Assembly: GCA_963696385.1 (NCBI GenBank)
Contig: CAVOKF010000008.1
Location: 576,001 to 640,000, forward strand
DNA: 64,000 nucleotides
DNA from: an uncultured delta proteobacterium
GTDB lineage: Bacteria > Myxococcota_A > Polyangia > Polyangiales > Polyangiaceae
Direction: 5' to 3'
Positions 4,921 through 21,818 of this stretch are shown here, one piece after another. The first letter of the stretch is position 1, and every line of letters starts with the position of its first letter. The notes beneath the pieces were generated by a model that did no database searches, was not told the DNA's origin, and worked only from the letters and a program-made list of their open reading frames with translations. The position numbers and the translations under genes are program-made.

Positions 4921-6090
4921 CTACCTTCCCTCGAGCTCGGTCCCGGCCCGCAGCTTCTCGAGGTACGCCGAGTACGCGAAGCTCCGGTCCCGCCGCTTCC
5001 CGCTCGTCTCGGTGAGGACGCCGAGGCGCTCCAGAAGCTGAACGGCCTTGCCGGCCGTGGGCTTGGTGCTCTTGAGCAGCTTGACGACACCGGGGATCGT
5101 GACGATGGGGTGAACCGGCAGCTGATCGAGCAGGCGGATCGCCATGACGGATGCGCCCGGCGCAGTGAGCAGCCGTTCGCGGTCCGTGCTCACCAGTGTG
5201 AACACTTCGCGCGCCGCAGCAACCGCCTCGTCGGCGATCGTGGCGACGCCCTCAAGGAAGAAATCGGTCCACGCCTCCCAAGCACCGGTGCGCCGGACGG
5301 CGCCGAGCAGACGGTAGTACTCCGCCCAATGACGCTTGAAGAACAGACTCAGGTAGAGAAGCGGCGCGGACAGTAGCTTCCAGTGCTCGAGCAGAACCGT
5401 GATGAGCAGCCGTCCGATCCGGCCGTTGCCGTCAAGGTACGGGTGGATGGTTTCGAACTGCACGTGCGCCAGGCCGACGCGCACCAGCGCAGGCAAGTCG
5501 TTCTCGGCGTGAAAGGACTTCTCCAGATCGCTAAGAAGCGCGGGCAACTCCTCAGGCGGAGCTGGGACGAAGACGGCGTTGCCCGGTCGCGTGCCGCCGA
5601 TCCAGTTCTGGCTGCGGCGAACCTCGCCGGGCTGCTTGGTGGCGCCTCGAACGCCGCGCATGAGTCTGCGATGCGCCTCGTTGAGCAGTCGCATCGACAG
5701 GGGCAACCCCTTCGGGCTCTTGAGCTGCGCTCGCGCGTACTTGACCGCGTCGAGGTAGTTGCAGACCTCGCCCACGCTCTCGACGGCGGCGCGGTCGTCC
5801 TGCTCGGCTTCGTACTCGAGCAGGTCGATCAGGGTGGCCCGCGTGCCCTCGATCTGCGAGGACACCACGGCCTCCTTGCGCACGAAGGCGTAGATGAACC
5901 AATCGAGCGACGGGACCATCTCGCCGGCCACCTCGAGCCGGGCCAACGCCTGCTGCGCGCGCGCCACGAGAGCGGCCCGCTTCGCGTCCATCTCAGGCGT
6001 CGGTGCCCGAGGGGGGAGCGGATGGGGCACGAACATGGCGACTGACTCGCCCGCCGTGGTTCGCTCCAACGTTCGGCCGGTTACACGCAC
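4921..6090 (-). CDS. Fic family protein (N-terminal Fic_N region, C-terminal wHTH)
   Basis: HVQFETIHPYLDGNGRIGR Fic motif and EAVVSSQIEGT motif. GTG start at 6090 is preceded by AGGA. The 801-aa track ORF is over-extended upstream. Confidence 0.92.
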   Translation of the reverse strand: MRVTGRTLERTTAGESVAMFVPHPLPPRAPTPEMDAKRAALVARAQQALARLEVAGEMVPSLDWFIYAFVRKEAVVSSQIEGTRATLIDLLEYEAEQDDRAAVESVGEVCNYLDAVKYARAQLKSPKGLPLSMRLLNEAHRRLMRGVRGATKQPGEVRRSQNWIGGTRPGNAVFVPAPPEELPALLSDLEKSFHAENDLPALVRVGLAHVQFETIHPYLDGNGRIGRLLITVLLEHWKLLSAPLLYLSLFFKRHWAEYYRLLGAVRRTGAWEAWTDFFLEGVATIADEAVAAAREVFTLVSTDRERLLTAPGASVMAIRLLDQLPVHPIVTIPGVVKLLKSTKPTAGKAVQLLERLGVLTETSGKRRDRSFAYSAYLEKLRAGTELEGR

Positions 6091-9371: not shown

Positions 9372-9659
9372 CGGACGGCATCTTAGGCGACAGGGCGAAA
9401 TTCGAATGGCTCATCGCCCTCGTTGGACGTCCGCAGCAGCCGCGCTTGCTGGCTTGGTCGGGACAGCGCGGCTGCCGCTCGCCTTGGTTACGCTGGCACT
9501 CGGCCTATAGTGCCGCCGCGTTAGCTCATGACAAATAGATTGTTCTTGAGCCACGGCATTCCCGCAGACGGTCCTAGCAAGGAATTGCGAATCGGCCGTG
9601 GCACCAATTGGCTAGCACGCCTCGCCGAGGCCAAGCACCCCGTCGATATCAGAGGACGG

Positions 9660-12600
9660 ATGTTTCGCTACCGAGTCTTGCTGGCTCTCCTCGGGTGCCT
9701 GACAGCGATCGGTGCGCCGGCGACTGCGAACGAGACGACTCTGGTCGTGTCGCGTGAGGACCCTTCGTTCGACGTTGCTACCAGCCGCCTTGCAGCGGGC
9801 CGGGATGGTCGCGTCTATCTTGCCAGCAACCGCTTCGTTTTGGGCCTGTGGCCCGATGGATCCGGCAAGGCGGGCGGTGCCGTAACCTACGCGTTGCAGA
9901 TGGCGGCGGCGAACGCGGCCGGCGTCATCGCAACCGCGAATGCGCACTTCAATCACAGTGTCAATCTTTGGAGTCGCGATTTCACACACATCGGCGCGGT
10001 CGCGGACTTTCTCGTAAACGACCAGGTCCAGTGGTGGTCGCCGACGGACGTCGAGGCTGGCGAGAGCGGCGACTTCTACGGTCTCGACGCGAACCGACGT
10101 CGCATCGTCCGGGTCGCAGCGCCTGGACGCATCGTCACCACGTACTCGCTGGAACGCATCGCCGAGAGCACCGTCGGCAAGGTGCCCCAGCTGCGGGTCT
10201 GGGAGCGGGGCCGCCGGTTTTACGTGCTCAGTCAAAGCGGAATGGTCTCCGTTGTCGCCTTCGACGGGGCCTTGCTGTGGTCGACGCGTCTGCGCCCAGG
10301 CGGCTTCGACGTCGACGACAACGGCCGGCTCCTCGTCCTCGCAGGGACTGAAGACACCGTTCAGATTTACGACCCCGCGGGGAAAGCTTTGGCGCCGTTG
10401 CACGTGCATATGGGTGAACGCAAAGGCCGCGTGAGCGACTTGCGGGTGTTCCACGACAACCTCTTCGTCAAGCGGACAGACCCCACCGAGCTTTTCGAAG
10501 TATACGACCGCGCTTCTGGGGCCTTTCGGCGCGTTGTTCCGGCCGATGCGGAGGTCTTTCGAATTTCGCTTCCGAGCGCGATCTGGACGGCCGGCGCCGA
10601 CGTGCCTATCTCGGTTCAGCCGCTGCCATCCGACCACCCACCGCCGTCGCGGTGGCGCGCGTGGATCCGGCCGCTGGGCTTACCGGATTTCGCGGAGCTC
10701 CCATTTCGCAACGGACAGGCGAGCATTCCGCCCGACCTCGGGGGGCTCTATCAGCTGCGCCTCTCTCCCGACCTGCGAGGGGGGGACGGAGAATACCAAG
10801 TCGACAGCTCGGTCGATATCGTGGCACCGGGCCACCGCGGCGGGATTTCGATTTTCACCCCCAACAACCGATTCTACTACGGACGCGGAGAACCCATTCC
10901 CGTCACCGTCGTCGTTCGCGTGGGTGACACGTCCGAGAGGCCTGCGAGAATTCCGATCAAGCTCGTTGAGCATGGCCAAACGATCGCAGAGTGCGACGTC
11001 GATGTGCACCCCGAAGCGGTTTCACATCTCGATTTGAGTCCAGCACTGACCCGCGCCCTTCGGCCCGACCGCTACTCGCTGACGACCGAGGTCGCAGGGT
11101 TCACCGTAGCGTCTCAGCCGATCGAGATCGGCCCGGGCATCGAGCAGGCCCCAACGTTTAGCCTCGTCCAACATGGCGACTACGCGGCGTCGTTCCCTGC
11201 CGGTGGCATCTTTACCGCCCCCGAGAAGGTCGAAGCGCATTTGAACCGCGCGAAAAAGCTCGGCATCAATATGTTCGTCGATCGCTTGGGTCACGGCTTT
11301 GCAGGTGTATTGCCGCGAGTGGACCAGATGCTCACGGCCCAGGATCTGGTCTCGACCTTGAATGGCGACCCAGCTGCTGTCTCGCCCGAGAAGGCGACGG
11401 TCGAAGGGCCGGTACGCGCGAGCATCGCAGGATATGGGGCCTACGGCATTGAGGAGCGCGCCATTCTGCTCAGCATGGATGCGGGGCTTCCGCTCGGGAC
11501 CGGATACGACTCGCGCACGCCGGAGCAGATGATGGAAGCGGTCCGACACGTGACGACGAGCTTGCTGCCGTATCCGGCATTTCGCGGGTGGAGCTGGGCC
11601 GCAAACTGGTGGGTCCAGAAGCTCGGCGAGGATGCTGCCGACGGGCCCGCGGAAAGGGCCGACTACCGCGCAGCCCTCGGCCGGGCGGAGACCACTGGGA
11701 AGTGGGATCCGGTGCTCGACCGCGTCTCGGACCGGATGCTCGCTCCGGCGGTCGACGCGGAGCAGCGGCTCGATGCCGTCCTGCAACGAACGGCGCCCGG
11801 CAAGCTGAGCGTTATGACAGGCCCCTACCGCGCGGTGGGAGTTCTGCCGCCCGTCACGTTTCGCGCAGCCGACGAAGTCGACCTTCACTATCAAGCCGAA
11901 CAGATTCAGCCGCCGGAGGTCACGCCCGAGAACGTGGACTTCTACAAACGTCCGGGCAAGCGCGCGTGGGGTCACCCCGAGATCTGGAACGACGACGGCA
12001 CCGGCGCCATGCTTTTGCCCACGTTGTTGCAGATGGCCATGCGGGGTGCCGACGGGGTCGGCTGGTCCGGGGAGCAACCATGGAACGGTTCCGGCCCGAG
12101 CGATCCCCGGGCTTCGGCGCCCGGACAGCTGTCGGTCCTACGTGCGGTCGGTCAGCTGCTTCGCAACTATGGGCCCTGGCTCACCACGCTGCACGGCGCC
12201 GATCGCGTGGCCATCGCGGTGTCGTCGCGGATGATGCGAATCGATCATTGGGGGTCGAGCACGATGGGAGAGTACTTCGGTCGTCTGTACGAGGCGTACG
12301 GTGCGTGCCTTTACGCACACCGGCCCGCGAGCTTCGTATTTTCCGATGACGCTACACCCGAGACGCTGAAGCCTTTTCGCGCCGTGCTGGTCGTCGACCA
12401 ACGCGTTGAACTCGATCCCAGTCTTTCTGCCGCGCTCACGCAGGCCCGCGCCGCCGGCGTTGTGGAGTTCTACGACGGGGCGTCGCGTCCGGAGGTTCTT
12501 GGTGGCCTTACGCCGCTCGGAATCGCCTTCGATCAAGTTCCCCGAGATCCGAGCGTTTGGCAGGACGATTCCGCATACCGCCGAATTCCTGCTTACTTTG

Positions 12601-15548
12601 AGAAGGACGCCGAGACATTGCGTCGCGTCCTCGCCCCGTCGGTCACGCCTGTCGCGGAGGTCGACGACGCGGAGATTTTGCTCACCGAGCGCGTCTCCGG
12701 ACCGGGCCACTTCGTGTGGGTCGTCGACAACATCATCCCCGATCTGGATCCCGGACTCGCCTGGCGCACGGGGTTGATCATGTCGACGCGGTTGCCGCGG
12801 ATGGCACCCGTCAAGTTGAGCCAACCAGGCGGCGCGATTTACGATGTATTCGCTCTACGAGAAGCAAAAGCCACGAACGGAGTCATCGATGCGGATCTCC
12901 GCACCATGCCAGCGCGCCTTTACGCGATCCTGCCGCGCCGGATCGATGCCGTCGAGGCGACCGCGCCCGCAACCGTCGATGCCGGAGCGACGTTCGACTG
13001 GAGCGTGATCGTCCGTGACGACCGGCATCGTCCAATGGCTTCGAGCCTTCCGGTGCACGTCACGCTCGTCGCCAGCGACGGCTCCGTGATCCAGGAGACG
13101 ATCGGGGCAAGCTCCGCCGGCGGAATGATCGCCGGTCGTTGGGTCATGCCGCTCAATGCACCCTCCGGCCCGCTTGCCTTGCTGGCGTCGGAGCTCATCT
13201 CGGGCAAAACCGTGAGCGTTCCGATCCGCGCAGTCGTCGCTTCGCAGCCGGCAAATCTCCAGCAACGGGTACCGCATGCGGACCGGGCCACCGACGCCCC
13301 GATCACCGCGATAGGGCGCGCAGCGGACGCCGCAGACGCCCCCATCGAAGCGCGCTTCGGGCCCCACCTCAAAGACGTTGCCGTGTCGGGTAGCGGCGAC
13401 CTCGCCGTCTTCAACGCCATGAACTGGGACCAGAACCTGTATGCGGTGGATCTAAAGACTGGGGATGTTCGATGGCGTCGTCGCCTTGGGCATCATTTCA
13501 GTTACGATCCCCGCAGCACGGCGAGCGCCTTCGCCGTCCAGGCGTTCGATCGAACCTCCGCCGAGGGATACCACCTCTATCTGCTCGACCCGAACGGCAA
13601 GCCCGAGCGTCGCTTCGCGCTCTACGGCTTGCCCAAGCGAGCAACTACCTGGGACACGGGCCTCTACCCGGCCGACCGCATCGATCAATTTGCCGCGTCG
13701 CCGGCGGGCGATTGGGTCGCTAGCTCCGGCGATCTCGGTGTCGTCGTGTGGGATCGCGACGGTCGGCGACGTTGGAGCGTAGACGGGTGGAAGACGGGCG
13801 AGCGTCACATCACGCTGCTCGCCGCATTGGATCGCGAGACGCTCGTCGGCGTCGATTCGACGACGGTGACCGCGTACGACGCGCGCCACGGATCCCGTCG
13901 GTGGACGATTCGACTCGCCGCAACGGGCCATGCTCTCGGTGCGGTTGTGGGCGCGCCAGCGTCGAAAATGCTTGCGGTTCGGACCGACACAGACGGGGGG
14001 CAAGTATTTCTCATTCGCGACGGGAAGCTCCTGGCGGCCGTTCCGTCGCCGGCGGACGACCTGGCGCTATCGCCGGACGGTGAGCGGTTGGCCGTCACGA
14101 CGGGCACGTCGCTCAAATGGTACTCGAACTCGGGCGCCTTGATCTGGAGTTTCACGGGCGACGACGTGCTGCGCCGTCCGACGATTAGCGTCGATGGTCA
14201 GCGGATCGCGGTCGGAAGCGAGCTCGGGACTCTGTACGTCCTGTCTGCCTCTGGGCAGATTTTTTGGGAGCACGATTGTCAGGCGTTGCCGGTAGCCCAC
14301 TGGCTCGACGGAGGTGATTTGCTGGTCGGATCGTGGATGGGACACGTGCAGCGTTTCGACGACGGCTACCGTGAGATCTGGCACACGCACCTCTCGCCCA
14401 CGACCCGCGACATTCGTCCGGCGCTTCTAGCCAAGGATGCAACGCCGACGACGCGCGTCGAGTCGTGGGGCAACGCGGCGCCCACGGCCGCACCGCTCGT
14501 CCCGAACCTGCTGACTGAAACGCACGCGCTCATCCACGCGACGATGAACGACCGCCGTCAGGAGTGGCAGAACCCGATCGCGGCGATGACCGACGGTAAG
14601 CCCGACCCACCGCCTGGGCCGTGGCTCACGTGGACGTCGATCAACTACGTCGACTCGGGCTGGTTTGGGCCCCTGAGCTTCGAAGTCGACACCTTCCATT
14701 CGCAGATCCGGCTTCGAGGCATCACGTTCGTCGAGGATGAGTCGCACCCGGAATCGTGGTCGCGCGATGTCCGCCTCCAATCCTGGGATGCTGCGCAAGA
14801 GCGATGGACCGACGGCCGTTGCCTGCTGTCGGACACCGCAACGCACACTCACTGGCTGGATCCGCCCCTCGAAGCGGCTCGCTTTCGATTCGTCACGACG
14901 GGTGGCGCAGCGTGGCCCGTTGGCAACATCCGTTTGGGAGAGATCGTGTTTCACGGAGAGCTGCTCGGCGGCTCCCATCCCGACGTCGCCGCGAAGAGAG
15001 CCATCGCCGTGCTGTTCGACGAGCAAGAGAGCGACTTTCGGACGATGATCCGTGGACGGGACCACCCGTTTTCGATCGCCTTCGGAGACGCGTATTCAGG
15101 CGGCAAGTCGCTCGTATTGACGGCGGCGGGCACGACCGCGCCCGCGTACGAACCGCCGTTCGGTCATGCCCTGCCCGATTGGGACTTTGAAATCGAAGAG
15201 CACCCCAAGCCGGGACAATACCGATGGATTCAGTTCGCGTGGAGAGCGCTCTCGCCAGACACCACCGGCATGTCGCTGCTGCTTGGCAAACCGTGGCCCG
15301 GCGGCGGTTATGCCTTCGAGGCGGGGACGCAAGCATGGCGCGAGGGCGTCCTTGCGACGAAGAGTGTGGCAGCGGCGCCGCCGCAGGCCTGGCAAGTCGT
15401 GCGTGCGGATCTCTGGTCGCTATACCGGCATCCACTCCGCATCCAGGAGATGAGCCTCGCCGCTACCGGTGGGGGCGCTGCGTTCGACCAAATCGTGCTC
15501 GGACGGACAGAAACCGACCTGGATCGCGTGGCGAGAGCCCCGCCATGA
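9660..15548 (+). CDS. Giant secreted multidomain protein (beta-propellers, putative glycoside-hydrolase-like barrel, carbohydrate-binding-like C-terminus), 1962 aa
   Basis: ATG at 9660 follows AGAGGA. Signal peptide MFRYRVLLALLGCLTAIGAPATA. Propeller repeats (GFDVDDNGRLLVL; LYAVDLKTGDVRW; LALSPDGERLAV). Trp-rich C-terminal modules. Confidence 0.8.
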   Translation: MFRYRVLLALLGCLTAIGAPATANETTLVVSREDPSFDVATSRLAAGRDGRVYLASNRFVLGLWPDGSGKAGGAVTYALQMAAANAAGVIATANAHFNHSVNLWSRDFTHIGAVADFLVNDQVQWWSPTDVEAGESGDFYGLDANRRRIVRVAAPGRIVTTYSLERIAESTVGKVPQLRVWERGRRFYVLSQSGMVSVVAFDGALLWSTRLRPGGFDVDDNGRLLVLAGTEDTVQIYDPAGKALAPLHVHMGERKGRVSDLRVFHDNLFVKRTDPTELFEVYDRASGAFRRVVPADAEVFRISLPSAIWTAGADVPISVQPLPSDHPPPSRWRAWIRPLGLPDFAELPFRNGQASIPPDLGGLYQLRLSPDLRGGDGEYQVDSSVDIVAPGHRGGISIFTPNNRFYYGRGEPIPVTVVVRVGDTSERPARIPIKLVEHGQTIAECDVDVHPEAVSHLDLSPALTRALRPDRYSLTTEVAGFTVASQPIEIGPGIEQAPTFSLVQHGDYAASFPAGGIFTAPEKVEAHLNRAKKLGINMFVDRLGHGFAGVLPRVDQMLTAQDLVSTLNGDPAAVSPEKATVEGPVRASIAGYGAYGIEERAILLSMDAGLPLGTGYDSRTPEQMMEAVRHVTTSLLPYPAFRGWSWAANWWVQKLGEDAADGPAERADYRAALGRAETTGKWDPVLDRVSDRMLAPAVDAEQRLDAVLQRTAPGKLSVMTGPYRAVGVLPPVTFRAADEVDLHYQAEQIQPPEVTPENVDFYKRPGKRAWGHPEIWNDDGTGAMLLPTLLQMAMRGADGVGWSGEQPWNGSGPSDPRASAPGQLSVLRAVGQLLRNYGPWLTTLHGADRVAIAVSSRMMRIDHWGSSTMGEYFGRLYEAYGACLYAHRPASFVFSDDATPETLKPFRAVLVVDQRVELDPSLSAALTQARAAGVVEFYDGASRPEVLGGLTPLGIAFDQVPRDPSVWQDDSAYRRIPAYFEKDAETLRRVLAPSVTPVAEVDDAEILLTERVSGPGHFVWVVDNIIPDLDPGLAWRTGLIMSTRLPRMAPVKLSQPGGAIYDVFALREAKATNGVIDADLRTMPARLYAILPRRIDAVEATAPATVDAGATFDWSVIVRDDRHRPMASSLPVHVTLVASDGSVIQETIGASSAGGMIAGRWVMPLNAPSGPLALLASELISGKTVSVPIRAVVASQPANLQQRVPHADRATDAPITAIGRAADAADAPIEARFGPHLKDVAVSGSGDLAVFNAMNWDQNLYAVDLKTGDVRWRRRLGHHFSYDPRSTASAFAVQAFDRTSAEGYHLYLLDPNGKPERRFALYGLPKRATTWDTGLYPADRIDQFAASPAGDWVASSGDLGVVVWDRDGRRRWSVDGWKTGERHITLLAALDRETLVGVDSTTVTAYDARHGSRRWTIRLAATGHALGAVVGAPASKMLAVRTDTDGGQVFLIRDGKLLAAVPSPADDLALSPDGERLAVTTGTSLKWYSNSGALIWSFTGDDVLRRPTISVDGQRIAVGSELGTLYVLSASGQIFWEHDCQALPVAHWLDGGDLLVGSWMGHVQRFDDGYREIWHTHLSPTTRDIRPALLAKDATPTTRVESWGNAAPTAAPLVPNLLTETHALIHATMNDRRQEWQNPIAAMTDGKPDPPPGPWLTWTSINYVDSGWFGPLSFEVDTFHSQIRLRGITFVEDESHPESWSRDVRLQSWDAAQERWTDGRCLLSDTATHTHWLDPPLEAARFRFVTTGGAAWPVGNIRLGEIVFHGELLGGSHPDVAAKRAIAVLFDEQESDFRTMIRGRDHPFSIAFGDAYSGGKSLVLTAAGTTAPAYEPPFGHALPDWDFEIEEHPKPGQYRWIQFAWRALSPDTTGMSLLLGKPWPGGGYAFEAGTQAWREGVLATKSVAAAPPQAWQVVRADLWSLYRHPLRIQEMSLAATGGGAAFDQIVLGRTETDLDRVARAPP

Positions 15549-16414: not shown

Positions 16415-18277
16415 CTACGGCGCGTCCCACGTTCCGACCCATGCGCGGCCCGCCCGAACGCAAGCCACATGCGTCGTATCGTTACTGATTGCGCAATCGC
16501 GCTGCTCGGCGAACGTCCCGTCGAGCTCAGAGCCGCGCAGCCAGCGCGAGCGCCCAGGACCGCGAACGATGAAGCCCACGTCGGTTGGCACGACGTAGGT
16601 CCGGCCGTCGGGCGAGCGCGGGGCGCCCGGGCGCATCGGCTGGCCCAGAAACGTGGCCAAAAGCGATGCGCGCGTGAGATCGGACGAGACCAAAATCGGC
16701 TCGCCATCGACGATGGCTTCCAAGCCGGCCGGGCCCCACGCCACAGGGGTCGTCTGCGTCGGCGCTCCGCGCGACCCCGTGCATCGGCCCGCGAGGGGCG
16801 GCGCCACCGGCAGCGCCACGTCGCGATTGTCGTCGCCGCTGGCGAGCTCGAACGTCGCTCGGAGCGGCAGGCCGTCGCACGGGTCATACGCCTCAATCCA
16901 GCGGGCGCCACCGTCGGGGGATACAACGCGCGGATCCCAATCCGGTACGTTCGCGGCGGCTTCGTCGCCGAAGTCGGGGTCGACGCGCACAACGCCAGCT
17001 CGTGTGCGAACCAGAAGCTTGCCGCCTGGTTCAAACGCGAGAGCGCCCCACGTCGGCTCGTGACTGCGAGGCGCGACCGGGACCGCCGCCACGGCACGCA
17101 CCAAGCGGGCGGTCGCCGCGGGGGCCAGTGCTGCGAGCCACTTCTGCGCCTCGGCCACACGCTGCGCCGTATGCGTCGCGGGCGGACGCTCGGCGCGATC
17201 GAGCGCCAGCGCGGTTCGAAGCGGATCGCCCATCGTGGCATACGCGCGTACGACGGCGAGGCCGAGGTCTTCCAGCGCGCGCCCGCTCCCGCACGTGATG
17301 GCGCCCGTGCCGGCCACGGCGAGCAGGCGCGGCGAGCCGCCGTCCGCGCACGCGGCGCGCCAAAGGGCACGCACTTGCGACGCATAGTTGGGCACTTCGG
17401 GAGCGTCCTGCATGTTCTTCGCGTGCCTCGTGGCGAGCGCCGCGAGCATCGAGAACGAGACCTCGGTCACCGTTGCGTCGCGGCTCAGACCGGCGGGACG
17501 ATCCGACCAGGCGAGAGTCGCCGAAACGCGTGGCCCCGGCTCGAGCGGTGGCCCACCGCCCTCGAGCATGACACGCAGGGCCACGTCGTCGCGCCCGTCT
17601 GCGTCCCGGTCAGAGACTTCTGCGTCGAGGGTCAAGGCGGGGGCGCCCTCAGGATCGGCGACGGTCGCGGCGAGGCGCACTTTGGGGTTCAGGCCACCGT
17701 CGATGACCGCGACCCAGCGCGCAGGACCCGTGGGCGGATGCTGGAGGCACTGCGCGCCCAGCTCCGCAAGGACGGAGCGCGCGCCGACGGCGACCAGCCG
17801 ATCGATCGCCAAGCAGTCGGCGTCTCGCGAAAGGCCCGCGGGCGGCGCAAATGTCGCCGCAACGGCCAGGATTCCGTCGTCGCCCGCTCCTCGGTAGTAG
17901 AGCACCTCACCGGGATCGTTGCCTTCCGCGGGGCGCGCGATGGCAAACGCTTCTTTGGCCCCGTCGCCGTCGAAGTCGCCGATGAGCGCGGAGGCGAAGA
18001 CGAGTCCATCCGGAGCGCCCAGCGTCACGCCCTCGACGATCCATTGCGTCGTGTTGGGCGGGGCTGCGGTCGCGTCGCGCTCGGCAAACCCGTCACCCGA
18101 CGAACTGGCGTCGGTGCCTCTCGACGCCGCGCTCATCGCCCCCTGCCCCATCGCCCCCTCCGGCTGCGCCGAGCCGATCGTGTACGGCACATAGGGACGA
18201 CCCCCTCGGCAGCCATGGCACCCCGCGCCCGCAACGAGGAGGACGGCGAGCAACACTCCGGGGACGACGTTCGCCAT
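16415..18277 (-). CDS. Putative lipoprotein with FG-GAP/DxDxDG-like motifs
   Basis: MANVVPGVLLAVLLVAGAGC lipobox; GDFDGDGAKE and DRDADGRDD motifs; propeller-like C-terminus (SPDG repeats). Confidence 0.75.
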   Translation of the reverse strand: MANVVPGVLLAVLLVAGAGCHGCRGGRPYVPYTIGSAQPEGAMGQGAMSAASRGTDASSSGDGFAERDATAAPPNTTQWIVEGVTLGAPDGLVFASALIGDFDGDGAKEAFAIARPAEGNDPGEVLYYRGAGDDGILAVAATFAPPAGLSRDADCLAIDRLVAVGARSVLAELGAQCLQHPPTGPARWVAVIDGGLNPKVRLAATVADPEGAPALTLDAEVSDRDADGRDDVALRVMLEGGGPPLEPGPRVSATLAWSDRPAGLSRDATVTEVSFSMLAALATRHAKNMQDAPEVPNYASQVRALWRAACADGGSPRLLAVAGTGAITCGSGRALEDLGLAVVRAYATMGDPLRTALALDRAERPPATHTAQRVAEAQKWLAALAPAATARLVRAVAAVPVAPRSHEPTWGALAFEPGGKLLVRTRAGVVRVDPDFGDEAAANVPDWDPRVVSPDGGARWIEAYDPCDGLPLRATFELASGDDNRDVALPVAPPLAGRCTGSRGAPTQTTPVAWGPAGLEAIVDGEPILVSSDLTRASLLATFLGQPMRPGAPRSPDGRTYVVPTDVGFIVRGPGRSRWLRGSELDGTFAEQRDCAISNDTTHVACVRAGRAWVGTWDAP

Positions 18278-18336
18278 GCTCGAAATGTGGATGCACGATA
18301 GACAAGTCTCCGCCCGCGTGGGAGCTTCCGTGAGCC

Positions 18337-19188
18337 ATGGCGCGAGCCGTCGCGATCGCGATTGCTTTTCTCGGGGTCGTCTCGCTCGCGGCGACCGCGA
18401 GCGCATCGGACGACGCCTCGAGCGCCGAGCCGCTATCGAGCCTCGATCGAATCCGGAGCGATCCTGCGGTCGCCAACGATCCGCGCGAGATCGATGCGTT
18501 GGCCCGCGAGGCCGAAGGCCTTGCGCCGGGTCCGTTGCGGACCCAAGCGCGGATGATCGTGGCCGAGGCCTGGCGGGGACGCATGCAGCGTCCAAACGAC
18601 GCCATCGATGAGCTGCGCAAAGTCACGGGCGATCCAAGCACCGATCCAGTGACCGCAAGCCTTGCTGAGCGAGAGCTCGTCGACGCCCTTTTGGCCAACG
18701 GCAAGCTCGAGCAAGCCGCCGAGGAGGCACGCGCCCACGCCGCACGACTCGATCCGCCGTTCGTCGCACGCGTGCTACGGCTTGGTCGAAGGCCGACCTG
18801 GACCCTGGCGGCGATGGCGGATCTTACGGCGTACTTCGCCCTGGCCTTGCTCGCCATCGTGCACACACGGCGCACACGCACGTGGGAAAGGGTGGTCCGT
18901 TCCGTTCGGCAAATGACCCCACTCGCCGTCGGGTTCGCGGCTTACGTCGCGATCGTGGGAGGGGTGCTGGCCGCGCAGTACGAGACCGGCAACTCAGGCC
19001 CCTTCCTCGTCCTCGGCGCCGCCCTCGTGCCGCTCGTTCTGGTGGCGCGGGCCTGGAACGCCGCGTCGTCGGGGAGTCTTGCCGCACGCCTCGGCCGGGC
19101 CATTCTGTGCACGACGAGTGTCTTCGCCGTGGCGTTCCTGGTCCTACGCGCTATCCGGTCCGATTACCTCGACGGGTTCGGCCTGTGA
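18337..19188 (+). CDS. Membrane protein with signal peptide, extracytoplasmic TPR-like helices and about 4 C-terminal TM segments
   Basis: Hydropathy pattern read by eye; its stop overlaps the next start as GTGA. Confidence 0.75.
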   Translation: MARAVAIAIAFLGVVSLAATASASDDASSAEPLSSLDRIRSDPAVANDPREIDALAREAEGLAPGPLRTQARMIVAEAWRGRMQRPNDAIDELRKVTGDPSTDPVTASLAERELVDALLANGKLEQAAEEARAHAARLDPPFVARVLRLGRRPTWTLAAMADLTAYFALALLAIVHTRRTRTWERVVRSVRQMTPLAVGFAAYVAIVGGVLAAQYETGNSGPFLVLGAALVPLVLVARAWNAASSGSLAARLGRAILCTTSVFAVAFLVLRAIRSDYLDGFGL

Positions 19189-19427
19189 GTGGGGAGCGCG
19201 CCGTCGACGAACGGAGCATTCGCCGTGTCCGCATCGGGTCCGGCGCCAACTGCTCGAGCATCGGAAGCGCCATCGACACGCTGTTCGCGACAGCGGTCAC
19301 GGGAGCCGCGATCTTCGCGGCCGTCGTCGCGGCGCTGAAAACCGAGCCCATCCAAGTCGTTGGACAGACGTCCAACGACAATCCATTGCGCGCGCCGGGC
19401 ACGCGCGACCCGGAGTCACCCCCGTGA
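19185..19427 (+). CDS. 80-aa membrane-anchored peptide with RxGxxxNCSS motif, candidate radical SAM substrate
   Basis: MSGERAVDERSIRRVRIGSGANCSSIGSAIDTLFATAVTGAAIFAAVVAALKTEPIQ...ESPP*. GTGA overlaps at both ends (19185-19188 and 19424-19427). Confidence 0.75.
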   Translation: MSGERAVDERSIRRVRIGSGANCSSIGSAIDTLFATAVTGAAIFAAVVAALKTEPIQVVGQTSNDNPLRAPGTRDPESPP

Positions 19428-20590
19428 TCGTCCGCTATGAGCCTTGGGGTGCTTGGGTCAAGCTTGAATCGACAGCCGCCATCGTGGCCCTCGACCGGGA
19501 CGGTGTCCGCGCCCTCGGACTCAACGGCGGAGCCACATGGCAAGGACCGCCGCGGCCCAGCGCGCCGCTGGAAGTTCATCTCGCCGTCACTTCACGCTGC
19601 GGCGCGGGGTGCGATGGGTGCTACCTGGACGCCCAGCCGGATGGGGTCGAGCCGCCTCGCGCCGCGATCGAGCAGGAGCTCGACGCCATGCGCGACGCAG
19701 GTGTCTTCACGGTCGCGTTCGGCGGCGGGGAGCCGACGACACGCGAAGACATCGACCTCCTGGCCGCGAGCGCGCGGGCCAGGGGCCTGACGCCAGTCGT
19801 CACGACGAGCGGCCTTGGGCTCACCGACATCCGCGTCGAGCGACTGCGCTCCTTCGCGCAAGTCAACGTAAGCTACGACGGGCCTGATGCGACCTACGCA
19901 ACCGTGCGCGGCTTTGATGGCGCCGCCCTGGCCGAACGGGCCATCGAGAAGCTCGCGCGCGCGGGGATCCGCGTCGGCGTCAACGTGGTGCTTACGCAGC
20001 AGAGTTTCCCGCGACTGGCCGAGACGATCGAGCGTGCACGAACGCTCGGCGCGTGCGAGGCCCAGCTGCTCCGCTACAAGCCCGCAGGGCGCGCAGCCAC
20101 GGTGGAGTACTGGACGCGGCGGATGCACCCCGATCAAGCTCGGACGTTGGGTCCGACGCTCCGAGCGCTCACGACGGCTTACGCAGCCAGCGGGTTTTCG
20201 ATTCGCATCGATTGCGCCCTCGTTCCGTTCCTTTCGGCCGACGAGGAGCTCGGCCAGGACGCGACGCGCCTGGCCCGCTTCGGCATCTTTGGCTGCGAAG
20301 CCGCTGGAGGTCTCGCCGCGGTCACCGTGGACGGGCTCATCGCCCCGTGCAGTTTTGCCAAACCGTCGCAGCTAAGTGCTGCCCATCTGAACGGCGGCTA
20401 CGCCGTGGACGCCGAGCTCGGGCGCTGGCGGGCGTACAACGACGCGCCGGCGGAGCCGTGCGCGTCGTGCTCACTGCGCCCGGTCTGCAAGGGCGGGTGC
20501 AAGATTGTAGCGGGGTGGGTCACGGGATCTCACGGACCTGACCCGGAGTGCCCACGCGTTCTCGCATATCGCGAGCCCCGCGCCACGTGA
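19424..20590 (+). CDS. Radical SAM/SPASM domain protein
   Basis: CGAGCDGC (CxxxCxxC) and GGGEP motifs; SPASM cysteines C-x17-C and Cx2Cx5Cx3C-x16-C. Confidence 0.92.
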   Translation: MIVRYEPWGAWVKLESTAAIVALDRDGVRALGLNGGATWQGPPRPSAPLEVHLAVTSRCGAGCDGCYLDAQPDGVEPPRAAIEQELDAMRDAGVFTVAFGGGEPTTREDIDLLAASARARGLTPVVTTSGLGLTDIRVERLRSFAQVNVSYDGPDATYATVRGFDGAALAERAIEKLARAGIRVGVNVVLTQQSFPRLAETIERARTLGACEAQLLRYKPAGRAATVEYWTRRMHPDQARTLGPTLRALTTAYAASGFSIRIDCALVPFLSADEELGQDATRLARFGIFGCEAAGGLAAVTVDGLIAPCSFAKPSQLSAAHLNGGYAVDAELGRWRAYNDAPAEPCASCSLRPVCKGGCKIVAGWVTGSHGPDPECPRVLAYREPRAT

Positions 20591-20898
20591 AGACCGCCTG
20601 GATTCCGGGAACACTGCTCGCGCTCGCATGGGGCCTCGTGATTGAGGTGGACGCGTACGCGGCAATGCGGGTGGTCCAGGTGCTCACTGGGCCCCAGGCC
20701 GACCCCGCCGCGATTTCCTGGAGTGTCCACTCGGGCTTTTTCTGGCGCGTCCTTACTGTCGCGTACGGTGGGGGAATCGCGGCGTTCGTCGCGTTCGTTG
20801 TCGTGCGCCGACGAGTCGCGCTCGCAGCGCGCGGGCTCGTGCCGGCCGTTGCGATTGCCGGCGGTCTATTGGCCTTGCAGAGTACGTTCTTTCCTTGA
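20587..20898 (+). CDS. Small membrane protein with about 3 TM segments
   Basis: GTG start overlaps the radical SAM stop as GTGA; three hydrophobic stretches. Confidence 0.72.
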   Translation: MKTAWIPGTLLALAWGLVIEVDAYAAMRVVQVLTGPQADPAAISWSVHSGFFWRVLTVAYGGGIAAFVAFVVVRRRVALAARGLVPAVAIAGGLLALQSTFFP

Positions 20899-21050
20899 GA
20901 ATTTCAGCGCTGTGCCCACACCCGCGAGCAGGGCTTGCGCAAGCAGGACATCCAGGCACCGGGTGCGGATCTTCCGTCGCGGACGACGTCGGCTTCGTGT
21001 AGGGTGCGCGTCGCGCGAAGGAAGCTCACGCGAAGGAGACTGCGAGAATC

Positions 21051-21818
21051 TTGCGACTCGATGGGCCGTCGCGCATGGGCGCACTCGCGGGCGCAGTACT
21101 CTGCCTTTCCGGCTGCCCGAACCCGAACGCCTACACCGTGCCGCGAACGCTCGAACCGGGCGACTTGCAGGTTGTCGTCGCGGCCGAAGTGTATGGATTC
21201 GGCACCAACATTGCCAATCCAGCCACAGCGGGCAGTAGCCCTCCGTCGTCCACGGTCTGGGGAGCGACCCCGCTATTGCCGACCATCGGCATTCGGTACG
21301 GTCTCGTCGAAGGAGTGGATGTCGGAGCGCGCTTCGAGAACTTCCAATCGCTCGCCGGTGACTTGAAGCTTCGTTTGCTTCGAGGCAATTTGGACATGGC
21401 GATCGACCCTGGCTTGGATGCCATCTATGTGGATACCGAAATAACCAACGCGGATACGACCACGGTGACGCGGAACGCCGGCGTGTTCTATTTGCATGCG
21501 CCGCTGCTGCTTGGCCTCAACTTCTCGGACTCCCTGACGCTGGTTGCGTCTCCCGGCCTGGCCTACGCCATTGCGACAGGACCGTTGGCCGGGGCGAGCC
21601 ACGCCGAGCAGGCCGGCGCGTCAACCGCGCTCCTGGCACGTCTCGGGTTGGGCGTGGATGTTCGCACGAGCGACCAGCTTGCCATCCACCCGGAACTGAC
21701 CTGCATGAGGGGTTTCAACAGTGCGCAGTCGCTTCTGTGCATAGTCGGTTTGGCTTTGAACATTGGCGCGCAGGCCAACTACGACGACCTGCGTCCCGCC
21801 CAGCCGTCGGAGCAGTAA
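21051..21818 (+). CDS. Putative lipoprotein / outer-membrane beta-barrel-like protein
   Basis: LAGAVLCLSGC lipobox (possible ATG at 21075); amphipathic beta strands (IGIRYGLVEGVDVGARF). Confidence 0.7.
   Translation: MRLDGPSRMGALAGAVLCLSGCPNPNAYTVPRTLEPGDLQVVVAAEVYGFGTNIANPATAGSSPPSSTVWGATPLLPTIGIRYGLVEGVDVGARFENFQSLAGDLKLRLLRGNLDMAIDPGLDAIYVDTEITNADTTTVTRNAGVFYLHAPLLLGLNFSDSLTLVASPGLAYAIATGPLAGASHAEQAGASTALLARLGLGVDVRTSDQLAIHPELTCMRGFNSAQSLLCIVGLALNIGAQANYDDLRPAQPSEQ

Follow-up and report, generated by a model that had tools for sequence, protein, structure and literature searches.

The subject of this analysis is a small gene on a 64,000-nucleotide stretch of DNA, hereafter the window, from an uncultured delta proteobacterium of the family Polyangiaceae (GenBank assembly GCA_963696385.1, contig CAVOKF010000008.1, positions 576,001 to 640,000 of the forward strand). 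The gene encodes an 80-residue (80-aa) protein in which an N-C-S-S motif stands immediately before a hydrophobic helix, and it is followed directly by the gene for a radical S-adenosylmethionine (SAM) enzyme with a SPASM domain. The two belong to a conserved four-gene membrane-associated module, consisting of a tetratricopeptide repeat (TPR)-like membrane protein, the peptide, the radical SAM enzyme and a small polytopic protein. In window coordinates, the features of the module are as follows.

18337..19188, + strand: 283-aa protein, first gene of the conserved module; open reading frame (ORF) with 51 homologues aligned
19185..19427, + strand: 80-aa N-C-S-S/helix protein; GTG start, TGA stop
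19215..19232, + strand: pre-motif strand SIRRVR, residues 11-16; conserved pattern [VI]-R-x-[VLI]-R, predicted to pair with residues 19-30 of the radical SAM enzyme
19230..19268, + strand: conserved loop R16-x-G18-x-G-A-N22-C23-S24-S25-x-G27-S28, candidate modified site
19269..19337, + strand: hydrophobic Ala/Val/Gly-rich helix, residues 29-51, conserved in sequence, with mid-helix Gly40
19341..19364, + strand: TEPIQVVG, residues 53-60, conserved E-x-[VI]-x-V (E54, V58); predicted contact with the first strand of the radical SAM enzyme
19365..19424, + strand: variable low-complexity C-terminal tail
19424..20590, + strand: radical SAM/SPASM enzyme, 388 aa, directly downstream of the peptide
19424-19558, + strand: N-terminal sheet domain of the enzyme, about 45 residues (R-x-E-x-[WF]-G-A...), with small conserved strands
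19598-19621, + strand: cluster motif C59xxxC63xxC66 of the enzyme
20213-20551, + strand: eight invariant downstream Cys of the enzyme, C264 to C376
20548..20898, + strand: small polytopic membrane protein, 116-aa ORF with uncertain start; last gene of the conserved module

Reading frame and conservation of the peptide

The forward-strand segment 19185-19427 translates to VSGERAVDERSIRRVRIGSGANCSSIGSAIDTLFATAVTGAAIFAAVVAALKTEPIQVVGQTSNDNPLRAPGTRDPESPP, followed by the stop codon. Its start codon, the GTG at 19185, shares bases with the TGA that ends the 283-aa gene upstream (GTGA), and its own TGA (19425-19427) overlaps the GTG with which the radical SAM gene starts at 19424. Most same-genus loci share the NTGA overlap of start and stop, which there too comes after a conserved ...GFGL at the C-terminus of the upstream protein. 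A mechanical ORF call in the peptide frame runs from 18882 to 19427 and is 181 aa long. Since the first 101 of its codons overlap the conserved 283-aa gene (18337-19188) out of frame, this ORF is spurious upstream of 19185, and judging from the sequence it is an artefact of a 69% G+C genome. The initial annotation, made from the letters of the window alone, had described the peptide as hidden inside a spurious longer ORF, which is borne out, and the strings it quoted, the hydrophobic helix and the variable tail are all present in the translation given above. Among the homologues, the tail beyond the helix ranges from 7 to 301 residues.

A word-indexed search with the 80-aa protein gave 239 homologues at E<=1, and in a profile search of 1.84 billion proteins the matching cluster representatives numbered 314 at E<=1e-3 and 234 at E<=1e-10. 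Conservation was assessed on the 268 sequences listed from the word-indexed and the exhaustive profile searches. Conservation of N-C-S-S among homologues had been set beforehand as the test of the motif, and in all 268 the N, C, S and S are invariant, as is the Gly five positions past the Asn. The residue six positions before the Asn is R in 246 and H in 22, while the Gly four positions before it is found in 266. The helix, too, is kept at the level of sequence beyond mere hydrophobicity: D/E, L, F and a Gly in its middle are conserved, and it ends in A-A-L, after which comes a Glu.

At the DNA level, an alignment of 103 loci showed that TCN and AGY codons both occur in the invariant Ser columns, that the N, C, G and A columns use synonymous codons, and that differences number 1716 at the third codon position against 1014 and 909 at the other two. 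To judge by the sequences, this codon pattern is a signature of selection at the protein level, and the 80-aa ORF can be taken as a genuine gene; the objection that the ORF might not be translated is thereby answered, as far as sequence data reach. A look for RNA runs covering 18300-20900 listed none. Scans of both Pfam and NCBIfam returned no family for the peptide, for its N-S-S-S relatives described below, or for the two partner membrane proteins of the module, and the ESM Atlas gave no usable match. This family, for which neither Pfam nor NCBIfam has a model, numbers over 300 Cys-type cluster representatives and, in the search with the Ser type, over 2,000 proteins, and it looks confined to Myxococcota.

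The radical SAM/SPASM enzyme and its linkage to the peptide

The downstream enzyme scores above the cut-offs for both the radical SAM family (PF04055, 56.3 bits against a cut-off of 29.5) and the SPASM domain (TIGR04085, 35.1 bits against 27). It falls outside the curated equivalogs of radical SAM maturases (MftC, PqqE, GeoRSP, NirJ/AhbD, ScmE/F and others). The top NCBIfam equivalog, TIGR03962 for the mycofactocin maturase, scored 80.8 bits where its cut-off is 265, and all 25 best listed equivalogs were far below their cut-offs, as they were for the fused and N-S-S-S-type enzymes described below. Across 35 orthologues C59, C63 and C66 are invariant, as are C264, C291, C309, C346, C349, C355, C359 and C376, which include a Cx2Cx5Cx3C arrangement, so that both auxiliary clusters appear, from the sequences, to be fully Cys-ligated. 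A C-terminal motif of seven Cys, serving two auxiliary 4Fe-4S clusters, is the mark of the SPASM subfamily. A GGGE stretch (residues 98-101, SAM-binding) is also present. The closest solved sequence is SuiB (5v1q, E 8.7e-9), and the closest folds, found with an AlphaFold2 model of a natural fused relative (mean predicted local distance difference test score, pLDDT, 88.2), are SkfB, SuiB, PqqE, CteB, the anaerobic sulfatase-maturating enzyme (anSME) and ChlB, all of which are SPASM enzymes that modify proteins or peptides.

The linkage of the peptide to this enzyme was followed at increasing distances. When same-genus loci were fetched through the radical SAM orthologue, 19 of 20 had the peptide motif directly upstream and the twentieth was cut by a contig end; one of the 19 (L015) came from an unpublished genome (G010), and excluding it leaves 18 of 19. 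More distant orthologous loci, from other families of the order, had the motif in five of six cases. A scan with the peptide alignment as query, taking one genome per species, gave 94 confirmed places, and 80 were kept. All 80 lie in Polyangiales-type Myxococcota (Polyangiaceae, Labilithrix and Sandaracinaceae), including the cultured Labilithrix luteola DSM 27648 (L064). A radical SAM gene stands directly downstream on the same strand in 73 of them, and the remaining seven comprise three cuts by a contig end, two loci with the enzyme nearby on the opposite strand, and two without a radical SAM gene within 4 kb. The physical coupling of the peptide to a radical SAM/SPASM gene, which the initial annotation had proposed, thus holds at 73/80 species-level loci.

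The sixth of the more distant loci (L022, at about 5100-5420 on the reverse strand of contig C10 in genome G025; also L103) has a radical SAM gene that is seemingly frameshifted near its N-terminus, with the peptide gene about 5 kb off. The peptide-enzyme system may be decaying in this genome.

Beyond the order, a run of the peptide profile over 401 Myxococcota genomes matched 52 at E<=1e-3, and 20 weaker-scoring loci, all outside the order, were taken for examination. In every one of these 20 an orthologue of the enzyme (38-47% identity, E 1e-52 to 1e-91) comes right after the peptide module. At the remote loci of the Cys type, the N-C-S-[S/A]-helix module forms, without exception (13/13), an in-frame N-terminal fusion with the enzyme. 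The fused proteins consist of a short N-terminus, the motif [R/K]-x-G-[HR]-[AS]-P-N-C-S-[S/A]-x-G, the hydrophobic helix, a linker of 30-60 residues and the radical SAM enzyme; examples among the loci L107-L126 are L119:2936-4171 and L117:2927-4216, both on the reverse strand, and the GTG of one fused gene is preceded by an AGGAGG box. Ten fused proteins called by other pipelines are present in the protein database, all with PF04055, and one of the ten, annotated by NCBI as 'radical SAM protein', is identical to our translation over the 45-residue N-terminal region searched. Closer to the window, the peptide ORF of two same-genus loci (L002 and L020) also reads in frame into the enzyme with no stop codon, which reflects either a recent loss of the stop or an assembly error.

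The other seven remote loci have a separate small ORF with G-[YFM]-N-P-N-S-S-S-[VIL]-G followed by the helix, and the radical SAM gene is directly downstream in all seven. A search with these seven N-S-S-S peptides gave 2,167 proteins at E<=0.1 among 8,000 candidates scored, with N-S-S-S in 120 of the 120 relatives listed; the few named sources are Kofleriaceae, Bradymonadia, 'Myxococcales' and one 3.5-kb contig binned as Chitinophagales. The initial annotation had mentioned small R-x-G-x-x-x-N-S-S-S proteins beside radical SAM genes in other bacteria and in phages. The bacterial half of this statement, with R or K in the first position, proved sound, and the viral half did not: in the viral contigs scanned with the N-S-S-S alignment 45 stretches fit the pattern, and tblastn confirmed none of them as relatives.

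Across the three architectures (separate Cys, fused Cys and separate Ser) the residue after the Asn is only ever Cys or Ser. In a quick maximum-likelihood tree of 55 enzymes, whose root is arbitrary and whose members are kin and not independent, the separate-Cys group and the Ser group each lay on one side of a supported branch (97 and 96, respectively), and the fused forms made up two groups. Since the Ser type forms one clade in the enzyme tree, the sequences point to the Cys/Ser difference being one evolutionary event in this sample and not repeated swapping. The interchange of Cys and Ser that the initial annotation had inferred therefore stands insofar as both residues occur with orthologous enzymes, and fails insofar as a recurrent exchange was implied.

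Interpretation of the peptide-enzyme pair

A complex of peptide and enzyme was modelled from an enzyme alignment of 35 rows and a peptide alignment of 33 rows, together with SAM and three 4Fe-4S clusters. Three runs gave complex scores of 0.85, 0.78 and 0.88, and the best of three controls gave 0.02. Of 157 solved complexes 116 reached the mark for such scores, as did 2 of 215 mismatched pairs, a benchmark that is only a rough guide for a model made with custom alignments and with ligands included. The runs share at least 82% of their contacts, with a partner pLDDT of at least 64. The best-defined contacts in the model are those of peptide residues 11-16 with residues 19-30 of the enzyme, in its N-terminal sheet (expected error 0.6-1.0 A). 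Peptide residues 17-35, which include G-S-G-A-N-C-S-S-I-G-S, are placed against the catalytic core, where the modelled contacts are residues 47-54, 67, 90-101 (including GGGE), 123-127, 144-148, 185-187, 212-219, 246-265, 282-297, 309-311 and 323. Beyond the helix, residues 53-60 are modelled on the first strand of the enzyme, residues 1-5 (1:3 with 2:56, error 1.0 A). The model supports binding of the peptide to the enzyme.

Taking these findings together, our preferred interpretation, to which we give a probability of roughly 0.6, is that the 80-aa protein is a dedicated, stoichiometric substrate of the adjacent SPASM enzyme, bound by strand addition, subjected to radical chemistry in its loop, and retained as product at the membrane with the two partner proteins; the modification itself, the modified atom and the cellular role we infer. 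It can be hypothesized that the strand S11-R16 adds to the small sheet at the N-terminus of the enzyme, like a leader peptide on the recognition element (RRE) domain of an enzyme for peptides that are made by the ribosome and modified after translation (RiPPs), and that the invariant G-x-G-A-N-[C/S]-S-[S/A]-x-G loop would thereby be fed into the barrel beside SAM and the radical-SAM cluster. A 5'-deoxyadenosyl radical would then take a hydrogen from the loop, with the two fully Cys-ligated auxiliary clusters managing electrons. The product would not be set free as a natural product; it would remain attached to the hydrophobic helix and, in many lineages, to the enzyme as well, held at the inner membrane next to the two partner proteins. 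Among the neighbours of the window's copy, scans against Pfam and NCBIfam found neither a protease nor an exporter, which fits a product that stays in place.

As to the chemistry, formylglycine arises in anSME substrates by the oxidation of cysteine or serine. Because the sole alternation at the candidate site is between Cys and Ser, and because the auxiliary clusters appear fully Cys-ligated, as they are in anSMEs, our single best guess by analogy would be an oxidation at the beta-carbon of the Cys or Ser after the Asn, giving a formylglycine-type aldehyde. This guess is tentative and more apt to fail than to hold, and an intramolecular (thio)ether or some other C-H functionalisation is about as defensible.

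Several observations weigh against the substrate interpretation or against parts of it. The conservation of a 40-residue core that includes the helix, and the one-to-one coupling or fusion of the genes, would equally suit a permanent subunit. The substrate motif of anSMEs, C/S-x-P/A-x-R, is absent from the sequence, and no sulfatase, whose gene usually lies close to that of an anSME, was found among the neighbours scanned. With the Ser type a single clade, the Cys/Ser difference could be incidental to the chemistry. The complex score may partly reflect the likeness of the model to solved peptide-bound SPASM enzymes (SuiB-SuiA, 5v1t; anSME-peptide, 4k38 and 4k39). The bias of flank charges in the sequences mildly favours an N-in/C-out orientation of the separate forms, and the fusions, together with the modelled contact of residues 53-60, argue that both ends of the helix are cytoplasmic, in conflict with that bias.

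The topology of the helix deserves closer attention, since the initial annotation had labelled it transmembrane. It is hydrophobic enough to span (the best 19-aa Kyte-Doolittle mean is 2.26), yet the fusions and the modelled contacts on both of its sides conflict with an N-in spanning helix of a bitopic membrane protein. An N-in single-pass helix with a cytoplasmic motif is doubtful because all 13 remote Cys-type modules are covalently joined ahead of a radical SAM domain that is necessarily cytoplasmic. The helix also has a conserved mid-helix Gly, Pro or Asn. We lean towards a helix that would keep its two ends in the cytoplasm, whether as a re-entrant or as a peripheral one; it is also possible that the membrane is entered only after modification, or that the loop is periplasmic and is not a substrate of the radical SAM enzyme.

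The periplasmic loop would correspond to an anchor in the N-out orientation, where the helix spans the membrane, the N-C-S-S loop lies in the periplasm with the periplasmic domain of the 283-aa protein, and contact with the cytoplasmic enzyme is limited to what follows the helix (E-x-V-x-V, or the linker in the fusions). Such an anchor has the sole single-pass topology compatible with a cytoplasmic radical SAM domain in the fused proteins, it agrees with the predicted contact of residues 53-60 with the N-terminal strand of the enzyme, and positive residues do follow the helix in the fused and N-S-S-S forms. We nevertheless consider it distinctly improbable, for the best-defined modelled contacts, those of residues 11-16 and of the loop, could not be made across a membrane, and the flank on the N-terminal side carries the more positive net charge in both separate families (+0.79 against -0.26 on the C-terminal side, and +3.14 against +1.24). 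Another alternative, unlikely in our estimate and still a serious one, is that the peptide, or the fused N-terminal module, is an unmodified small subunit or membrane tether, which holds the enzyme at the inner membrane next to its two partners and either shapes or blocks the active site while the true substrate is a lipid, an envelope precursor or a partner protein. The one-to-one translational coupling and frequent fusion, a helix conserved in sequence and not in hydrophobicity alone, the lack of a split into leader and core or of a protease or exporter, the constant company of the two membrane proteins, and the existence of SPASM-type enzymes acting on lipids (Tes/GDGT-MAS are among the matches of the enzyme) would all suit such a subunit. 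What it leaves without an obvious role is the invariant polar N-[C/S]-S-[S/A]-x-G loop, which a mere anchor should not need and which in the model faces the catalytic core and not the surface; the placement of the pre-motif strand on the N-terminal sheet, as leader peptides lie on RRE-type domains, likewise speaks for a substrate.

The peptide also has the outward appearance of a classical RiPP precursor, with an N-terminal leader and an N-C-S-S core that would be thioether-crosslinked in the manner of sacti- or ranthipeptides, cleaved and exported as a bioactive peptide. The small ORF directly precedes the gene of a SPASM maturase that has RiPP maturases as its closest relatives, the arrangement of a small precursor beside its maturase recurs at 73/80 species-level loci and at all 20 remote ones, and recognition of a leader-like strand is predicted. 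Leader removal, export and a variable or released core, however, are not seen: the module has no conserved peptidase or transporter, its 'core' is invariant over the 268 listed sequences and present in a single copy per genome, and in 13 lineage samples the enzyme carries the module as an N-terminal fusion. The peptide likewise departs from the sacti- and ranthipeptides in having a single Cys in its conserved region, and with Ser in its place throughout a clade whose enzyme is orthologous, a thioether cannot be the general product. All eight Cys of the auxiliary clusters are present besides, so that an open iron site like the one proposed for sactisynthases is not evident. An exported RiPP is therefore, to our mind, very improbable.

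Within the substrate interpretation, a more specific version can be envisioned in which this is a self-modifying radical SAM system whose enzyme equips its own N-terminal module, or in Polyangiales a translationally coupled separate copy of it, with a reactive group (a formylglycine aldehyde or a crosslink, for instance); stated this fully, it is rather unlikely. Two further candidates were considered and set aside. The Gly that stands four positions ahead of the Asn (R/K-x-G-[H/Y/M]) is reminiscent of the RVxGY signature, and a glycyl-radical role for it was rated low, the enzyme being of the SPASM type and not a PFL-activase, and the N-x-S sequence as an N-glycosylation sequon was taken for a coincidence, with no glycosyltransferase in the module.

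Known systems and neighbouring genes

The anSMEs (AtsB, anSMEcpe) resemble the enzyme described here in being SPASM enzymes with both auxiliary clusters fully Cys-ligated (by eight invariant Cys in our case) and, in our reading, in acting on a protein that remains a protein, the candidate target here being Cys or Ser depending on the lineage. anSMEcpe is found among the structural neighbours at ranks 25-42, with a template-modelling (TM) score of about 0.58-0.66, and no anSME model is among the 25 best NCBIfam matches of the enzyme. The substrates differ, a sulfatase in one case and a 60-100-aa helix protein in the other, as do the motifs (C/S-x-P/A-x-R against N-[C/S]-S-[S/A]-x-G), so that neither the substrate nor the gene neighbourhood is that of an anSME. 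The system here has in addition an N-terminal strand-binding domain and a substrate that is often fused to the enzyme, and the parallel in chemistry is one of analogy.

In sequence and fold, the nearest systems are the leader-guided SPASM enzymes SuiB-SuiA, SkfB, CteB, PqqE and MftC, and, as in these, an N-terminal domain is predicted to recognise a strand of the substrate. In those maturases this domain is a full RRE, whereas here it is a mini-domain of about 45 residues; the present enzyme, moreover, is below the cut-off of every family, its substrate has a conserved hydrophobic helix, and no protease or exporter follows. Its loop is without the Lys-Trp, Cys-acceptor or Glu-Tyr pair typical of leader-guided SPASM systems. 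Two other systems invite comparison. Borosins of the OphMA type also carry substrate and enzyme in one polypeptide, but with the substrate C-terminal to the methyltransferase, whereas the fusion here is N-terminal to the radical SAM enzyme. In QhpD-QhpC a SPASM enzyme matures a subunit that is kept in the holoenzyme, which is akin to the probably retained product and the one-to-one coupled genes of our system; QhpC, however, is a soluble Cys-rich subunit with thioethers to Asp or Glu, and the peptide here has one Cys or none.

To our knowledge, no radical SAM enzyme with a substrate-like module fused to its N-terminus has been described, and the passages returned by full-text literature searches came from general reviews or unrelated papers only and held no description of the peptide-enzyme family or of the fusion. 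Radical SAM/SPASM peptide modifiers are a main source of new protein chemistry, and nearly all known cases concern secreted natural products or the maturation of soluble enzymes. A substrate carried in cis implies a modification that is retained and possibly single-turnover, and a retained modification points to a protein-derived cofactor or a membrane-bound reactive group and not to an antibiotic. If the system does modify itself, it would amount to a membrane-held, protein-derived cofactor or reactive site that acts with two membrane proteins lacking a known family, and to a new, Myxococcota-specific class of radical SAM-modified proteins that are retained and not secreted. With natural Cys and Ser versions, fused and unfused ones, and a cultured, non-pathogenic carrier in Labilithrix luteola DSM 27648, the question is open to direct testing.

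The two remaining products of the module are, by their predicted topology, clearly polytopic. The 283-aa protein has a signal-peptide-like N-terminus, a weakly TPR-like helical domain and four C-terminal hydrophobic helices, as read from its sequence, and ends in a conserved ...YLxGFGL; its homologue is directly upstream of the peptide in most Polyangiales loci. The product of 20548-20898 has a strongly conserved WSxHxGxFWR motif, and homologues of about 250 aa are found downstream of the radical SAM gene in 17 of the 26 loci compared.

Two more genes keep their place beside the pair within Polyangiales, one of 726 aa that is divergent and a convergent murB. The former (16415-18595, - strand) has a faint FG-GAP match and holds its divergent position across most Polyangiales loci; it is possibly a functional partner, or merely a case of conserved gene order. 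A gene resembling purple acid phosphatase (Metallophos and PAP N-terminal domains) flanks the module on the opposite strand in 9 of the 26 loci compared (for example L108:588-1904, L121:601-1968, L109:5273-6727 and L100:1522-3099), and none stands beside the window's copy. Further upstream in the window, a 2006-aa ORF (9528-15548, + strand) carries PQQ-like beta-propeller repeats (PF13360) and is unrelated to the finding as far as seen. Downstream, a 255-aa ORF (21051-21818, + strand) with a lipobox-like LSGC and a weak match to an outer-membrane beta-barrel family (PF13505, E 0.013) sits between the module and murB, an arrangement that belongs solely to the window's own locus (L001) among the loci compared.

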